A stretch of 61,928 nucleotides of DNA, filler included, from Basidiobolus ranarum (taxonomy: Eukaryota): the NCBI GenBank assembly GCA_040143965.1. It is 7 parts of 7 records of this genome, joined end to end, with 100 filler letters (N's around TTAATTAATTAA, not from the genome) between each part and the next. Parts side by side here need not be neighbours in the genome. Positions count along the whole stretch, not along the records: positions 1 to 8,783 come from JASJQH010000921.1; 6 more parts are not named here. One strand, written 5' to 3'. Below the pieces are notes generated by a model. That model made no database searches. It was given only the letters and a program-made list of their open reading frames with translations, and was not told the origin of the DNA. The position numbers were made by a program, and so were the translations under genes. This document shows, one piece after another, positions 1 through 8,883 of this stretch. The stretch's first letter is position 1; every line of letters begins with the position of its first letter.

Positions 1-1227
1 ATGGTTATTATGAGCAGCTAAAGTGTACATGTAGACAGCATTTTCAAGACTCTCATCAACTCCTATCCCATTTTGGTAACAGTATCCCAAAGAATGAAGA
101 GCGAAAATATTGCCCTGTGCAGCAGAAGCAGTATACCATTTCACTGCCTCCTTCACATCCTTCGCCACACCAATCCCGTTTTGATAACAGAAACCGAGAT
201 TGTGTTGTGCTCGGGCATGACCTTGAATAGCAGCTCGACGATACCACTGAGCACCTTGAAACTCATCTTTGGAAACGCCAATACCATTCTGATAACAATA
301 ACCAAGGTTACATTCGGCCCAGGGATAGCCTTGTTTAGCAGAACAACGATACCATTCGGCAGCTTTTGGTTGATCTTTATCGATTCCGATTCCATCTTCG
401 TAACAATAGCCTAGAGAGTTTTGAGCAAATGCGTTACCCTGCTCAGCAGAAATTCGATACCATTTAACCGCTTCCACTGGATCTTTCTTTACTCCAATAC
501 CATCTTCATAACAGTATCCAACGTTGTAAATGGCAACTGATTCACCTTGTTCAGCTGCTTTACGATACCACTGCATGGCCTCTACTTCATCCTTTTCAAC
601 ACCAAACCCTTCACCGTAGCAATAACCTAGTATTCCTTGGCCCCGGGGATGTCCTTGCTCAGCAGACTTTTTGTACCATTTAAAAGCTTCCACTTCATCC
701 TTCGGAACACCAATACCATCATGATAGCATACACCTAGACAGTATTGAGCGGCAGCATTACATTCTCGACTAGCGGCATGGAATAACCATTTAAGAGAAT
801 CCTTTCCTTGTTTCTCAATACGTTGTTGCCACAAATCAGCCTCAACCCAATCAATTTTAACGGATGGTCGACCATATTTACGTAAAAAAGTCAATCTAGC
901 TTGTGCCAAGCCATCTCCATATTCAGCAGATTTTATGTAGTTTGCCTCAGCTAATTTAAAGTCTCTTCTAACACCGAGGCCAAACTCATAACAAAATCCT
1001 AATACAGCTCTAGCTTGATGATTACCAAGCTCAGCGGAAAGTTTGAAGTACTCAGCAGCTCTACGTTCTTCTTTTCTAGTTCTACCTTTACCAAAGAAGT
1101 ATCTTTCTCCTAACTTGAATAAACGAGAACTTTCTTCGCCAGGAGACTTGTTCGAGCGATATTTCTTGTTAAGTCGTTCCAATATCTTCTTCGACCGGGT
1201 GACCAAGTAAGTGGTTATAGCCGTCAT
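1..1227 (-). CDS. Sel1-like repeat (SLR) protein, intronless, 3' end runs off the window
   Basis: Manual translation from ATG at 1227 stays open to base 1 (409 codons): MTAITTYLVTRSKK... It has about ten 36-aa repeats, e.g. AQYCLGVCYHDGIGVPKDEVEAFKWYKKSAEQG and AQNSLGYCYEDGIGIDKDQPKAAEWYRCSAKQG. Absent from the ORF track because there is no stop. Confidence 0.93.
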   Translation of the reverse strand, partial: MTAITTYLVTRSKKILERLNKKYRSNKSPGEESSRLFKLGERYFFGKGRTRKEERRAAEYFKLSAELGNHQARAVLGFCYEFGLGVRRDFKLAEANYIKSAEYGDGLAQARLTFLRKYGRPSVKIDWVEADLWQQRIEKQGKDSLKWLFHAASRECNAAAQYCLGVCYHDGIGVPKDEVEAFKWYKKSAEQGHPRGQGILGYCYGEGFGVEKDEVEAMQWYRKAAEQGESVAIYNVGYCYEDGIGVKKDPVEAVKWYRISAEQGNAFAQNSLGYCYEDGIGIDKDQPKAAEWYRCSAKQGYPWAECNLGYCYQNGIGVSKDEFQGAQWYRRAAIQGHARAQHNLGFCYQNGIGVAKDVKEAVKWYTASAAQGNIFALHSLGYCYQNGIGVDESLENAVYMYTLAAHNNH

Positions 1228-2282
1228 GATATCAATGTATTTGTATGTATAAGTAAATAAACGACTTCTTTCTAGTAGACAAAAACGTTGTTACAAAATT
1301 ATTGACGGTAGCGTCAACTTTAACTGGGAAGAAACAGTAAGAAGAACGAGTATGGTAGCAAAGAATTGAGTTTTAAAACGAATGCTTAAAATGAAGTAGT
1401 ATTATCTTGACTAGACTCCTACTGAATTCACAGTTTATCAGTTATTAATATCTTCGATTTCTAATAAGGATGGTTGAGAGTAGGGAGTAACTATATATTA
1501 GAAAATCTGACAACTCGTGAAGGATAATACAGTGTAGAAATGTAGGGATGGAAATAGAGTGTGGGTGTAAAGGGGGGCTTTTCAGAGTATGAGGGAGAAT
1601 AAGACTGACAATGGGAGCTATTGTGAAACCAGGTTGTTATGAAGAAATTTAGATCATGTAGATTGAGTAGACCAAAGCTATCTGAGAGCGACCAGGTCTC
1701 GAGCTGCATGAATTGGTGAATCAATTGATTTTTTAGCCAATATGTATAAAATAAATCCCATTACTATGTATGTGTTAATGTCGGCGTGATGGAAGGCATC
1801 TATTTTGTGTATAGACTGAGACGGTGTAATTATTAATCGCCATAGACACATAACATAATTATTAGCCTTGCCTATATCGGGAATTTCTCAAATCACTGCT
1901 AATTACGATGCAACATTGAGTGCAACCAACTCCGCACCCAATTTCGCTAGACAAGACCTGGCTCCTACTTGTCTCTATATATCTGGAACCTCTCCCTTAT
2001 ATACTTGTCATATGTTGCCTTCATACCATACAGTTTGAAAATCATTTCCACTTGTTTAAATGTTGCTTAAGAATTGGATTAAATAGACATCTTTCCTAAT
2101 CTAATGTTGATATCAAGTATGAGTCAATCTTAATCATAATGTATACTGACTGATACTTGTAATTAAACCTGCCACCATACCTATCCTGAAAAATTTCAAA
2201 TAAAACTAGGAAAGTCGATTAAAAGCATGGCCAAGACTCGGCAGTGTCCCTTTGAAACTCAGAAACAACAAACGGAAACAGC

Positions 2283-3800
2283 ATGTCCTTTTCCGAAGCT
2301 GAAAGAGAACAAGAAAAAGCTTTAGCTTTAGAACTCGCTACGACAGCTCCACAGTTCCCACTCTTTTGGCAACTAGGGATTCAAGATGCCTCAGCAGTGG
2401 TTGATCAAGCCAAATACTTGATAAGCGTAAAGAATACCGAATTCGATATGGTGGGTTTTGAAAGTTTTGATAAACTCCCCTCGACTGAAAATATCTATCT
2501 AGTCATTTGTCGCGCAATAGCTTACCCAATGCTTCGTAACGCACAGCCACAACGTCCTGAGCAAATCTTTTGGGATTCGAAAGATGACTGTGGTATATCG
2601 ATAAAAGAAAAGGAAGTCCTTTCTGCTCTACTGAAGGAGAAATTACAGATACAGCTCTCAATACAGTCAGCTCCTGTTGAAGCACCAGTAAAGGCCGTAC
2701 CAATTCCCAAGAGTTCACAGTCGAAATGCTATGTCTGTGAGACTAATCTATTGAAGCGTTTTTGTTGTAGCTATTGTAAAGCAGTGAAATATTGCGGGCG
2801 TGGCTGTCAAATTAAGGATTGGGAACAACACAAAAAACTCTGTTCCTTGTTGAAGAAAGCCATGGAAAAATCCAAAGAATTGGGAGAATTTCCATTTACC
2901 TTCACTAAAGAAGGATATTTCTCAGAAGATAGTAATCTGGCCCAACATGAAGCTCTTAAGGGCTTTTACGGAGAAGGATATTGGAGAGAGGAGTTTCTTG
3001 AAGGACTACCGTGTCCAATGAAAAAGGCCGAGTGTAAAATCACAGATCCTGTGAAATTAAGTGGAATCTCTAGTACATTGCTTCCCTTTGACAAACCATT
3101 TGGGAAATGCACCGGATTCGCTGACACACCCAAAGCAATACACAACTGGGCAGATTTTTACAAAGCGAGAGAAATCGTATCCTCTGATCCAATTGCCTTA
3201 CTCTTAACACATCCACTTACAGTATTTCACATAATCGCGCATTTATGTCGAAACGGTTACTCCACTGAAGTCTCAACCACGCCTGGCTCATATATATGCA
3301 TTCATCTGGTCAATTGATATCCACATCACCCTAGTATGGGGCCAATTTACCAGTCATTACTGCCGCTCTTTCCCGGTGTCACACTGGACATATTCATGAT
3401 ACACCAGGATGCTCATAAGCCCGACTCCCTCTCACAGGAATACAAAAGCGAACAATTCGCTTCATGTGTCCGAATCCATACAGTCCCTACGACCTACGCC
3501 AACTTCCCTATCGACCAATTCCCACCAGATGTTGTGATCGGTTACCAGATGTCTGATTTGATTTCGATGATCCATAGAGATGAAATCAGCAAATTGATGA
3601 GCACTGCCAAGAGAAATTTCTATGTTGAAAGTACTGAACTAGGCTGTCATATGGTGCGTGAATCTTTAAAAGCCTGCTTAGAGCTTACACCTAGCTTAGC
3701 ATGCACTAGCAACCCTTTTCGTCAGCCGTACCTGAGATTCTTACCTTCTCTTTCCGTTCCCTGCTACACAAATGCTTTTGTGTTGGGATATGGAAAGTGA
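2283..3800 (+). CDS. ZMYND15/MSS51-family MYND zinc-finger protein interrupted by one in-frame TGA (3315-3317); possible pseudogene or recoded gene
   Basis: MYND finger CYVC..CSYCKAVKYCGRGCQIKDWEQHKKLC; family motifs WADFYKAR, LLTHPLT, NPFRQP. ORFs 2283-3317 and 3336-3800 are in the same frame. Confidence 0.82.
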
Positions 3801-3911
3801 GTGACTTTAAATTTGATGTTTTCTTTATCCATTTGCAATATATTTTACGTTGACCAAGGTAAATCCATTTTTGAAGTTAAATCCCTTTATTAGTGATTGA
3901 ATGGCTAAGGT

Positions 3912-5431
3912 TTATCCCAGCATATCATCTAGCCAGGTCTCCAGGTCGTCCTCTTTTGTAGTGGAAGTTGCTTTGGGAGAGATCCCTTTAGATAAGCGTG
4001 GTATAGGACGTTGGTTTGTAGGAGGCATTTGAACTAAAGAAGATATCATTCATTGCGTTAGCTGAATAATAATGACCAAGCATTTGTCGATGTGTTCAAT
4101 ACCTGGTTTAGCATCCAGGTCATCAATTGATAGTAGAAAATCAAGCTCAGCATTTTTTGTCTCTCCTTGGTCTTTTTCCAGAAATAAATAAAATGAGCAA
4201 CGTGTAAGAGAATCTAAATCATTTACCTTTTGGATTGCTTGTAGAGGACAGACGGTTCTTGTTATCTATCGTCGAAAAGAATGTAAGTTTTGTAGACAAA
4301 GATTGGCAAACCATTGTGAGTTACCATTTGACGGCATTGAAGATATGTGACTCTGAGGTCTAGTTAAGGGTGAAGGTGTATGACTAGAATTCTGGATAGC
4401 AGTGACTTCATTTAGATTAGGTGAGATATTCTTGGATCGAGTCGGTAAATGAGTGGGTTTGATGTTTTGTGAGAGTTTATCAGACTGCCGAGGATATTCT
4501 TCTTCATTCAGCTCATCCTCCTGCATAGTATGAACATTTCAACATTAAAGATTCGATTCCTACCATTACTTTCACTCGACTTACATTCCATTCTATCTCC
4601 TCCTCAAGTACAAGTCGTTCACTTACTGCAAGTGTTCTTAAGGAGCTTTGAAGATCATCGAAATCAATGCTCATAAAAGCTTGATAATTCTAGAATACAG
4701 TGAAATCTCCATATCAGTGAAAAAGTTTGAAAAGAAAAGATTCGAAAGTCACTTGAAACAACCTTTTGGTTGGGTGCTACTGGCTCATTAGAATCCAGAT
4801 CGTTCCATTCCTTTTCTTCTTTGAACTTGAAGTAAGCATCAGCATCTAAGTTGTCATCTGTATAACGAAAAATTTCAATATAGTCGACTTTGTTAAGCTT
4901 TTAACAACTACCATAACCTGCTTTTTCTAATAAAGAAAGTAAACTTTTCATCTCCCTTTCAGCACTTTCCTCAGCCTCCACTTGCATTTCCTCTACGGAG
5001 AAAGAGATTGAATACATGTACACTGAGATAATAAACTATTTTATAAACCTTCAGCAGTAGGTTCTTCATATCGAGTAGCGTTACTTTGAAGTTTTCGTCG
5101 AGAAAAAGTGGGAACTTTCTCTAGATTTTCTACCTCCTCTTCAGACCCACTTACTTCCTCTTCTTGATTAGGTTGTCCAACTTGAGGTGGTCCTAGTGAT
5201 TTAAACTAGTATTAGTAAAAACCATTGACTATAAAGTCACTTTAATAAACTTCCATATACCACTTGTACCACCTCTTCCTCTGCCTCTTCCGCGCCCTCT
5301 ACCACGTCCACGTCGCTTTTCAAACCCTCTTCTATCTTTCTTTAAAACAAGATCGTCACTTAAAAATAAGTTTTGGTTACTTTCTACTAAATAGGGGTAA
5401 GTTGGAAAAAATAAAGAAAAGTCTACTTCAT
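3912..5431 (-). CDS. Aven-like RGG protein, multi-exon (start codon and exon edges approximate)
   Basis: Exon translations: RRGRGRGRGRGRGRGG, FSRRKLQSNATRYEEP, AYFKFKEEKEWND, IDFDDLQSSLRTLAVSERL, AELDFLLSIDD, C-terminal EDDLETWLDDMLG* (TAA at 3912-3914). GT-AG introns separate these blocks. Confidence 0.8.
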
Positions 5432-5878
5432 TTCATAGAGATTTTGGTCAGTCTTGGTTAAGAAAGAGTGAGATACTTTTATTCAAATTGAATTTAATCA
5501 TTCACATATTTAAAACCACGAAACTATTTCTATGCTATGTAGTGGCTTGGATATGTTGAAATTTTACGTTATCCTTAGATATGCAACATTGGATTTTTGC
5601 AAGCAATAAATATTTAGACGAGGACATAATATTCCTTGTTGAATCATTAGATTTATTGTTAATCAAATGGTTGAAAGAAACATTCGGAGACATTCAAAAG
5701 ATCATTTCCCAACAAAATTCGACAGAATATACTTTATTTCGTTTACAAAAAGGCGAAATGAAAACTTTTCCTGACGATATTTCGCAAAAAATAAAATTAT
5801 CTTGGTAAAAGATGAATGACTGGTTCTAGAAGTACATGGAAAATCTTAGAAGGGCTTGGGAATGATATGTGAGGATGT

Positions 5879-7366
5879 TTACAATTCATCGTGCTCGGGG
5901 TTCTCCTCAGCTTTAGGAGTCTCCTCCTCAGTCTTTTTAGGGGTGGCCTCAACCTTGTTGACAGCGTTGTTGCTCAAGAATTCGATGAAAGATTCTTCGG
6001 TTCTATCACCATCGTAGTCAACAATTTCCTTATCTTTACCAGCCTTGAAAAGCTTGATAGTAGGGAATCCTTGAATTTGGAATTCAGCGTTGGCTGGAAG
6101 ATCATTGGCAGTGGCATCCATCTTGGCAATGACAATCTTATCCTTGTGTTCGCTGTAAGCGGCACCAATCTTCTCATAGATAGGAGCCAAGTTTTTGCAG
6201 TGACCACACCAAGGAGCGTAGAATTCAACCAAAACATCCTTCTCTTGGTCGTAAACAATCTTCTCGAATTCATCAGCAACAACAACCTTAACAGGGGCAT
6301 CGTTCTTCTCGGGAATAGGTTCAGACTTGATGGAGGCTTCGATGTCACCAGCTAAGAAGCTCTTGACGAATTCACCAATGTTAGCGTTAGTGATTTCCTT
6401 GGATTGGTCGAAAGGATATTTGGCGTTGTTGATGGTGTTTTGAATAGCCAAAGCGGGCCACTCAGCCTTAAGGTTAAGGGAGTCGGCGTGACCGGCATAC
6501 TTAACAGCGTCAATGAAGACGAAGTTGATCTTGCCCTTTTGCTCTTTGGCAATAGGGGTAAGAGCCTCGGTAATGGTCTTGCGTTCTTCATCATTGGAAT
6601 AGAAGATGTAGGTGAGGGGAAGACCAGACTCAACATAAGTAGAGTAGTTCTCAGGGCCAATCTCGTCCATAAGAGGGACGGAGCTGACACGAACGAACTT
6701 GGCCAATTCTTCAGTGGTGATCTTTCCATCGAAAACATCCTTACCCTCATCGAATTTCTTGAAGAGGACAACACCGGATCCCTTGATGTCGAACTTCTTC
6801 AACACTTCAGGATCGACGGTAGCACCGAAAACGAAGTCATCACGCATATCTTCGGCAACTTGCTTGAGGGCCTTGTATTCTTCAGAATCAGCAGATGAGA
6901 AGAAACCAACAACAACAACATTATCGGAATCCTTGAAGGTTTCAATAGAATCAATGGTGACCTCGGAGAGGGAAGGGAGGGTTTGCTTCTTCATGTAGCT
7001 AACAATTCCGTCGGCCTTACGAGGACCGTTGTAGTCACTAGGGCTTCCTTCTCTGAAGACCTTCAAAGTAGGGTAACCAGTAACTTCATACTCTTGGCAC
7101 AAGTCCATCTCAACGGTACAATCGACCTTAGCGAGCTTGATTTCTTGTTCCTTGAGGGTGGTAGCGGCTACTTCATATTCAGGAGCCAAGGCCTTGCAGT
7201 GACCACACCAAGGAGCAAAGAACTCGACGAGGATAAGCTTCTCGGGGTCAACAGTAGATTTGAAAGAGTCCTTGGTAAGGGACAATACATCAGAGTCTTC
7301 AGCAAAAGCAAGAAGAGGGGCAGATAAAAGAGCCAAGGCTGTGACAAAAGAACGGAAAGGACGCAT
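5879..7366 (-). CDS. PDI1: Protein disulfide isomerase (ER), intronless
   Basis: Signal peptide, two APWCGHCK thioredoxin sites, a-b-b'-a' length (495 aa), C-terminal HDEL. Confidence 0.97.
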   Translation of the reverse strand: MRPFRSFVTALALLSAPLLAFAEDSDVLSLTKDSFKSTVDPEKLILVEFFAPWCGHCKALAPEYEVAATTLKEQEIKLAKVDCTVEMDLCQEYEVTGYPTLKVFREGSPSDYNGPRKADGIVSYMKKQTLPSLSEVTIDSIETFKDSDNVVVVGFFSSADSEEYKALKQVAEDMRDDFVFGATVDPEVLKKFDIKGSGVVLFKKFDEGKDVFDGKITTEELAKFVRVSSVPLMDEIGPENYSTYVESGLPLTYIFYSNDEERKTITEALTPIAKEQKGKINFVFIDAVKYAGHADSLNLKAEWPALAIQNTINNAKYPFDQSKEITNANIGEFVKSFLAGDIEASIKSEPIPEKNDAPVKVVVADEFEKIVYDQEKDVLVEFYAPWCGHCKNLAPIYEKIGAAYSEHKDKIVIAKMDATANDLPANAEFQIQGFPTIKLFKAGKDKEIVDYDGDRTEESFIEFLSNNAVNKVEATPKKTEEETPKAEENPEHDEL

Positions 7367-8247
7367 AATAATTGATATTCACAATAACTGAGAAGTGTAA
7401 GGAACACACTCTATCAGAACGATTATTTAAATGGAAAGACCCTGCTCAGATTGGCTACTATTAGACCCAACATCATCAGTGCGAGGAGAGGTTGATTTGT
7501 CAGGGAGCTTTGAACCAATCACTGCCTACAAACACAGAGATGTTTATTATCGAGGGTAGTGTTAAGCTGCCATTGGGTACTATTGCCTTATGCTTTCAAC
7601 GATCCAGAATGAACTACGTGGATTTCTGGTCCGATACTTTTGGTCGAGCATCCTGTAATATAACCAATACTTTCATGCCGACAGCCACTGTCGACTTTTA
7701 TATTTTAATTACCAAGTGGAGGATTAATTGCGCGACGAACAGGATAAAGCGTCGAGTTCTGTCAAATGGCATTAGAAATGCGCCTGTAAATTTGGTTAAC
7801 AATCGGTTTATTTTGCAATTAGCAAGCTAAATTACTGAAAATGAAATATATATAGAATAGTAGCGAAGACCAAAATGGGATAAAAGATATTAACCGATTA
7901 TTCAATTCTGTAACCATTGGATGTGTTAATAGAAAATTACAATCAATGCTTTGTGCTGTGCTTGTTATATTCAACTGTTTTGATCATACCTGGCTGCAAG
8001 AAAGTAAAAACCAATGGAATGAGATAAGGACAAGTATATGCAGGAGAGCAGAAGGGTTTCTATATTCCAGTTTCCCTTTGAAGACTCTATTTCAAATGAG
8101 CCTCTTTGATCAAGGAAAGGGAGAGAAAATGTTTTGTATAAAAAGCTACAAGAAACTTTTCGAGTAAATGAAAGTTCAAAATTGGTTTTTACAAATTTTG
8201 GAGTAAATGGGGTCGGTCATACTATCACAAGCGCTTTCTCATGAAGC

Positions 8248-8783
8248 TTAAGATTCTTGTTTGGTATCCAACCCCTCCATTATTGCAGGCTCAGGGCTAG
8301 GACTCTTTACTAATGTTCTAGTTTCAGGTAGATCCGTTTCGGAGCTACTAAATGATTCCGAGTCATAGTTACTACTGGGGTCTATCTCTCCATGAACTCT
8401 CATGTGTTGATGCAAATTGTCACTCCTGGAGAATCCTTTTCCACACTCTTCTATGGGACAAAGGTATGGTCTTTCTCCCGTGTGTGTACGAAGGTGTCTC
8501 TTTAGATGCTCGTAGCGTTTGAATCTTCTTTTGCACATACCAAATGTGCACATGTAGCTTTTTATTTCCCCGGTAGACTGTCTTCGAGCTGGCAAATATG
8601 TGCGATGATAAGGCTTTTCACTTTGATCAAATTGATACGAGGATGTGGTAGGTGCTGTCCACGTAGCATTACGAATCATGGTTCTGTTTCGGCGTTGTTT
8701 ATAGCCCATCGGACCTTTGAATGTGTTGAGTAAATTCATACCTGGTCTCATACGGATCACTTGATCCCATCTCGAGACCACAT
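8248..8783 (-). CDS. C2H2 zinc-finger transcription factor, probably 5'-truncated by the contig end
   Basis: YMCTFGMCKRRFKRYEHLKRHLRTH-TGERPY-LCPIEECGKGFSRSDNLHQHMRVH; ORF abuts the N linker. Confidence 0.88.
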
Positions 8784-8883
8784 NNNNNNNNNNNNNNNNN
8801 NNNNNNNNNNNNNNNNNNNNNNNNNNNTTAATTAATTAANNNNNNNNNNNNNNNNNNNNNNNNNNNNNNNNNNNNNNNNNNNN
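8784..8883. other. Artificial contig linker
   Basis: 44 N + TTAATTAATTAA + 44 N. Confidence 0.97.

Follow-up and report, generated by a model that had tools for sequence, protein, structure and literature searches.

In the early-branching fungus Basidiobolus ranarum, the gene at positions 3912..5431 on the minus strand of the window (the whole stretch of DNA analysed, 61,928 nucleotides) very probably encodes a homolog of AVEN, judging by the positions and phases of its introns and by those human residues for which a source was available. By analogy with its animal and plant counterparts, this AVEN-family member is most likely a disordered partner of a FOCAD/RST1 scaffold and of the SKI complex in mRNA surveillance.

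On the sequence evidence the gene is real. It consists of ten exons separated by nine GT-AG introns of 55-73 nt each, and the spliced exons give a single frame of 315 aa with no internal stop. The earlier note had proposed a multi-exon gene with six named blocks, and both points were borne out, since the minus strand carries the blocks in the proposed order, from the RG tract at 5312-5268 to the terminal block at 3956-3915. The protein is acidic, disorder-promoting types make up 72% of its composition by residue count, and it is predicted to be mostly disordered with short conserved blocks. In the RG tract (aa 18-32, 15 aa) there are seven RG repeats and just one RGG. The least certain piece of the gene model is the putative 5-nt exon 1 with its ATG at 5431, which is identical in the second copy of the gene, L002. 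An alternative first-intron acceptor at 5380 was rejected in favor of that at 5359 because of a 7-bp insertion in L002. The features of the gene are as follows.

3912..5431, minus strand: AVEN/RIPR-like gene, 10 exons, 315 aa, modelled
5427..5431, minus strand: exon 1, 5 nt, putative start codon, the same in L002
5261..5358, minus strand: exon 2, RG tract at 5312-5268
5049..5192, minus strand: exon 3, acidic stretch and block 1 (5106-5062), which matches the human K113/R120 spacing and RIPR 59-66
4918..4992, minus strand: exon 4, predicted helix with an LLxxA block at its end, followed by phase-1 intron 4 (human c.445/446, phase 1)
4763..4857, minus strand: exon 5, block 2 (FxEEKE-W, 4834-4805), common to human AVEN, unseen in RIPR
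after exon 5: intron 5, phase 0, human counterpart c.516/517, phase 0
4585..4689, minus strand: exon 6, amphipathic helix block with ERL at its end (4677-4597), ungapped 27-aa match to RIPR 164-190
after exon 6: intron 6, within the bracket for human intron 4
4325..4520, minus strand: exon 7, Ser/Pro/Thr-rich, fast-evolving linker, 20/78 identical over exons 7-8 to the Basidiobolus meristosporus protein P0003 (ORY00425.1)
4227..4265, minus strand: exon 8, 39-nt linker exon, placed by splice sites and frame only
4103..4171, minus strand: exon 9, leucine-rich block 4 (4151-4122), which matches the repeated LD-x-LL blocks of RIPR
3912..4033, minus strand: exon 10, entered in phase 1, as is human exon 6 (c.973/974), with the acidic WLD block (3956-3915) at its end
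3914-3912, minus strand: stop codon

The human counterpart of the leucine-rich block 4 is presumably the nuclear export signal. The leucine-rich export signal of AVEN is described as conserved, with no coordinates in the available part of the report (PMC3847313).

The assembly contains two copies of the gene, the second of which (L002) is cut by a contig end. The exons of the two copies differ at 34 of 666 sites with no gaps, whereas the introns differ at 54 of 389 sites and by 14 gap bases (Fisher p 1.4e-6 versus exons). The 222 codons compared carry 24 synonymous and 10 non-synonymous changes, a dN/dS of 0.098. The gene is under purifying selection relative to its second copy (dN/dS 0.10). 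The whole locus is present twice in the assembly, once in the window and once in L002 and L018, at approximately 90% identity and a dS of approximately 0.2. Gene order is conserved between the two, a pattern that fits a hybrid or duplicated genome. An intronless protein disulfide isomerase gene (5879-7366, minus strand) lies immediately upstream on the same strand as the AVEN/RIPR-like gene, and this neighbor is upstream in both copies (second copy at L002:1-204). The neighboring zf-MYND gene (2286-3800, plus strand) has an in-frame TGA at 3315-3317. Its second copy (L018) has Ser at the TGA position but needs frame changes, and both copies look damaged or mis-assembled. The window is made up of contig pieces of approximately 8.8 kb with runs of N between them (8784-8883 and five more), and the contig of the gene covers 1-8783 only.

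A protein search with exon 5 returned two candidates, one of which was P0003, a hypothetical protein of 204 aa that is annotated as partial and carries a precomputed match to Pfam PF28377.1. It is 47% identical to the spliced protein over 220 columns (pairwise E 9e-57), conserves blocks 2-5, and spans junctions 5/6 and 6/7 exactly as in the gene model. Identity is concentrated in the blocks (24/27, 29/35, 14/23 and 11/14) as opposed to the linkers (20/78 and 5/26). Unlike the window gene, the deposited model of P0003 begins at exon 5 and is without the RG tract and block 1. The protein of the window itself had no record in the protein collection searched with the exon-3 and exon-5 queries.

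Searches with single exons were uninformative as to family. Pfam profiles, in a set that is without PF28377, gave two weak unrelated rows for eight exons and none for P0003. None of 14 word-search candidates for exon 3 reached E<=10, and a HMMER search with 33 aa of exon 3 against 1.84 billion representatives found nothing at E<=0.001. The best ESM Atlas match to exon 3 (0.88) was unnamed, and PDB searches with exon 5, exon 3 and P0003 gave nothing meaningful. No animal or plant protein was reached by the single-exon database searches. A degenerate DNA pattern for block 1 had 0 matches in viral contigs, and its one match in a metagenome contig was rejected as chance because it contains a stop and no other block. 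Strings of the AVEN motifs were found neither in the main texts searched nor in one ubiquitinome supplement (PMC7801436).

Since single exons are too short for significance at the scale of a database, the human data were taken from the variant table and guide sequences printed in the supplement of PMC11864970 (part of the rows), with human motif letters beyond the sourced positions taken as background. One guide sequence reads F-A-E-E-K-E; R156 and E159, which the table lists, fix its position at residues 157-162. The fungal block 2, F-K-E-E-K-E, is identical to it in five of six residues. At the sourced human positions, 10 of 24 residues are identical in the fungal protein, or 6 of 20 without the anchors. 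The K113/R120 and L196/E201 spacings are kept; human W118, which corresponds to W61 in RIPR, is not, and is Ala in the fungal protein.

Three human introns are known exactly from splice variants: c.445/446 in phase 1, c.516/517 in phase 0 and c.973/974 in phase 1. The human introns were projected onto the fungal protein through the nearest block with a tolerance of three codons. The distance from the projected site to a same-phase fungal intron is 3, 2 and 2 codons, respectively, so that all three exactly known introns are matched. With random placement and the phases kept, 215 of 300,000 trials reproduced all three matches; with the phases drawn uniformly, 74 of 300,000 did, and exon permutation reproduced them in 701 of 500,000. 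The phases-kept and exon-permutation trials give a simulated p of 7e-4 to 1.4e-3 for the three-intron match. A fourth human intron, bracketed at c.604-621, also holds a fungal intron within its bracket; all four were matched in 31 of 300,000 (phases kept), 6 of 300,000 (uniform phases) and 157 of 500,000 permutations. These p values are optimistic because the tolerance was set after looking at the data, as the anchors were chosen, and because six of the nine fungal introns are in phase 1. Human intron 1, we assume, does not match a fungal intron. Introns that agree in position and phase, together with the sourceable human residues, support the AVEN homology proposed in the earlier note.

The two proteins are also alike in general architecture. 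AVEN (human/mouse, Q9NQS1, 38.5 kDa), which partners FOCAD and the SKI complex, is similar in size to the fungal protein, and both have an N-terminal RG tract followed by the K..R spacing, FxEEKE, L-x4-E and a terminal acidic block in the same order. They differ in the RG region, which is 15 aa in the fungus and 73 in human (residues 1-73), and in the number of introns, nine against five in human (six exons, from the exon column of the table).

The fungal protein also resembles a plant protein. Arabidopsis RIPR (At5g44150, 356 aa), which we take to be identical to CER16, has RST1 and the SKI complex as partners. Its sequence was used as printed in Supplementary Fig. 3 of Lange 2019 (PMC6711988). 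By eye, RIPR has the blocks SN-x-x-RY-acidic, the exon-6 helix, LD-x-LL and a terminal DD-x-x-x-WLD in the fungal order. The exon-6 helix aligns over 27 residues without gaps, ends in ERL in both proteins and scores 38 with BLOSUM62 (hand-scored). For four chosen RIPR motifs, all four best matches fell at the expected ordered places with a summed score of 98. Shuffling 3,000 times gave 45 +/- 6 (maximum 75), the highest of 125 other-frame tiles reached 67, and the reversed protein scored 59. These statistics depend on short motifs and hand scores, and the four motifs were selected with the data in view. Because the motifs were picked for matching, the ordered-segment estimate for the 315 x 356 comparison, P ~0.008 on hand-scored blocks, is the fairer figure. 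Single blocks have E values of 0.09-5, none significant alone; the terminal WLD block reaches E ~1.5e-4 if both ends must coincide (terminal diagonals). Human W118-x-R120 corresponds to W61-D-R63 in RIPR.

There are also differences. The N-terminus of RIPR is rich in Lys, His and Ser and has no RG tract, in contrast to the fungal protein, and no clear FxEEKEW block is seen in RIPR by eye, whereas FxEEKE is common to the fungal and human proteins. The LD-x-LL block occurs in several copies in RIPR. Because it has blocks in common with each, the fungal protein looks like a bridge between AVEN and RIPR. The comparison suggests that these supposedly unrelated RNA-decay helpers belong to one ancient family. 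The match to plant RIPR and the link to FOCAD and SKI were both missed by the earlier note.

A search of the genome with DUF3730 (Focadhesin/RST1) gave two candidates, which turned out to be successive exons split between two contigs with a shared 111-bp overlap at 99%. Ski2_N was found in the same genome with 58.5 bits, above its cut-off. The two genes are as follows.

L006:84-2027 then L012:3221-7331 (G000:C623, C1123), minus strand: FOCAD/RST1-like gene, ten-exon model, ~1,830 aa, helical-repeat
L009/L011 (G000:C9463): Ski2 gene, Ski2_N and DEAD domains, cut by a contig end

In the FOCAD candidate, DUF3730 positions 1-82 (22.2 bits) and 105-151 (15.8 bits) occur in order; both pieces are below the cut-off of 30.3, and each is the sole Pfam match of its frame. 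The candidate is 1,830 aa long, as compared to 1,840 aa given for RST1 in the accessible part of one report (PMC6711988) and 200 kDa for FOCAD (PMC4561382). The deposited protein, named hypothetical, covers just the first 647 aa. The ESM Atlas ranked the N-terminal part with HEAT proteins of the MMS19 type. The Focadhesin domain PF11229 was not found in a profile search of the genome and the candidate, the homologue search with the candidate was empty, and its PDB search gave nothing meaningful. AlphaFold2 without an alignment gave a pLDDT of 41.6, and complex prediction for the first 647 aa with P0003, a pairing of two species without alignments, scored 0.00, a value taken neither for nor against an interaction.

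As reported in the accessible part of one study, AVEN and FOCAD were, the SKI complex aside, the only proteins recovered by tandem purification of SKIV2L in mouse cells; AVEN and FOCAD form a stable pair, the binding of AVEN to SKI is transient, and AVEN was proposed to prevent ribosome stalls (PMC7083229). FOCAD and AVEN are described as stabilising each other and SKI in the available portion of PMC11864970, and RIPR as binding RST1, SKI7 and SKI in that of PMC6711988. Human AVEN without residues 1-73 still recovers TTC37, SKIV2L, WDR61 and FOCAD approximately in step with the bait (SILAC, PMC4561382). The conserved fungal blocks fall in the non-RGG part of the protein, the part of human AVEN that still recovers FOCAD and SKI.

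From the animal and plant proteins, the fungal protein would be a small disordered adaptor that pairs in the cytoplasm with a FOCAD/RST1 helical-repeat scaffold associating with the SKI helicase complex. Its short helical blocks would dock on FOCAD/RST1 and the SKI complex at stalled ribosomes, and the RG tract may add RNA or ribosome binding. The module's targets would be stalled or structured mRNAs, where it would either keep stalls from occurring, as proposed for AVEN, or pass fragments to the exosome, as RIPR does. The direction of action is not transferable because the effects of AVEN and RIPR loss differ, according to the available text of PMC8116306. A SKI-complex cofactor is known in a fungus, Ska1 of S. 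cerevisiae and its close relatives; it is described in the accessible source as restricted to budding yeasts and competing with ribosome binding, and is likened here by description only.

The earlier note had pointed to a role in translation through RNA G-quadruplexes and DHX36. If its main job were to bind G-quadruplex RNA via the RG tract and act with a DHX36-type helicase in translation, independently of FOCAD and SKI, the retention of the N-terminal tract in both gene copies would fit, as would the binding of the human RGG/RG region to G-quadruplex RNA and polysomes. The recovery of DHX36 by human AVEN needs the RGG region, with an H/M ratio of 0.37, but its enrichment is weak (normalised 1.09, 3 peptides) as compared to 6-9 fold for the FOCAD and SKI subunits (PMC4561382), and the available part of Tuck 2020 names no helicase partner but SKIV2L. 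Furthermore, the fungal tract is short, the strongest conservation lies outside it, and RIPR carries other blocks with no RG tract. This role is therefore probably not the conserved core, and we consider it unlikely as the main job. That an RNA or ribosome role is older than the apoptotic role, as the earlier note also proposed, is supported. The least probable reading, and a very doubtful one, is that the protein regulates cell death by way of Bcl-2-like or Apaf-1-like partners, the role in which AVEN was first described in mammals. The stretches of human AVEN that bind Bcl-xL and Apaf-1 do fall within the conserved part, C-terminal to the RGG motif, but BCL2L1 and APAF1 are absent from the human AVEN interaction table (PMC4561382). 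A search of the Basidiobolus assembly, in contrast to the human host of AVEN, found no match to the Bcl-2 family, a weak negative in a fragmented assembly with silent controls. To our knowledge, the Bcl-2/Apaf-1 pathway is absent from fungi.

The possibility was also considered that this is a non-homologous, disordered fungal protein, and that the likeness of its short acidic and leucine-rich motifs to those of AVEN and RIPR arose through chance or convergence. All the blocks are short and compositionally common, the single-exon searches of whole databases brought up neither animal nor plant proteins, and post-hoc choices enter every statistic used. However, the order of the blocks would then have to be a coincidence, the WLD block is terminal in both the fungal and the plant protein, three introns of the same phase lie beside the same blocks, and a partner-like gene is present in the genome. 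Chance or convergence is accordingly judged improbable.

AVEN has been called conserved from mammals to flies and, in the accessible part of PMC8894942, metazoan-specific. The available sections of PMC6711988 state that RIPR has no homologues outside flowering plants and that RST1 is absent from modern fungi, and those of PMC8116306 that RIPR is unrelated to AVEN and that RST1/FOCAD is not in fungi. Neither a fungal AVEN nor homology of AVEN and RIPR was reported in the literature searched, a scope that leaves most subscription journals and orthology databases outside, and PF28377, IPR026187 and PTHR16524 appeared in no paper searched. The novelty claimed in the earlier note stands as to that literature, and is reduced as to annotation, which partly exists in fungi in the match of PF28377 to the B. 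meristosporus ortholog. Because PF28377 covers that protein, the fungal range of the family may already show in databases.

The preferred reading remains that of a FOCAD/RST1 and SKI partner of the AVEN family. The Basidiobolus protein probably unites AVEN with RIPR and places FOCAD-AVEN, as a module of SKI surveillance, far back among the eukaryotes. With slightly less confidence than in the proposed function, we favor the joint proposal that AVEN, RIPR/CER16 and the fungal protein form one family, in which FOCAD/RST1-AVEN/RIPR would be an ancestral SKI cofactor module kept by early-diverging fungi and lost in yeasts. The blocks common to the three kingdoms would be FOCAD/SKI-binding surfaces, and the RG tract and G-quadruplex binding would be animal and fungal features absent in plants.

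The four or five short conserved blocks are mutation targets for mapping the binding of AVEN to FOCAD and SKI. Such a map bears on the synthetic lethality between PELO and FOCAD/SKI that is pursued in cancer, as described in the accessible part of PMC11864970. The FOCAD/RST1-like gene in Basidiobolus bears on the claim, found in the available parts of the published reports, that fungi, or modern fungi, are without RST1/FOCAD. If true, the joint proposal would do away with the view that the partners recruited to FOCAD/RST1 differ between plants and animals, and would explain the absence of the FOCAD-AVEN layer from yeast, the main model of SKI biology.
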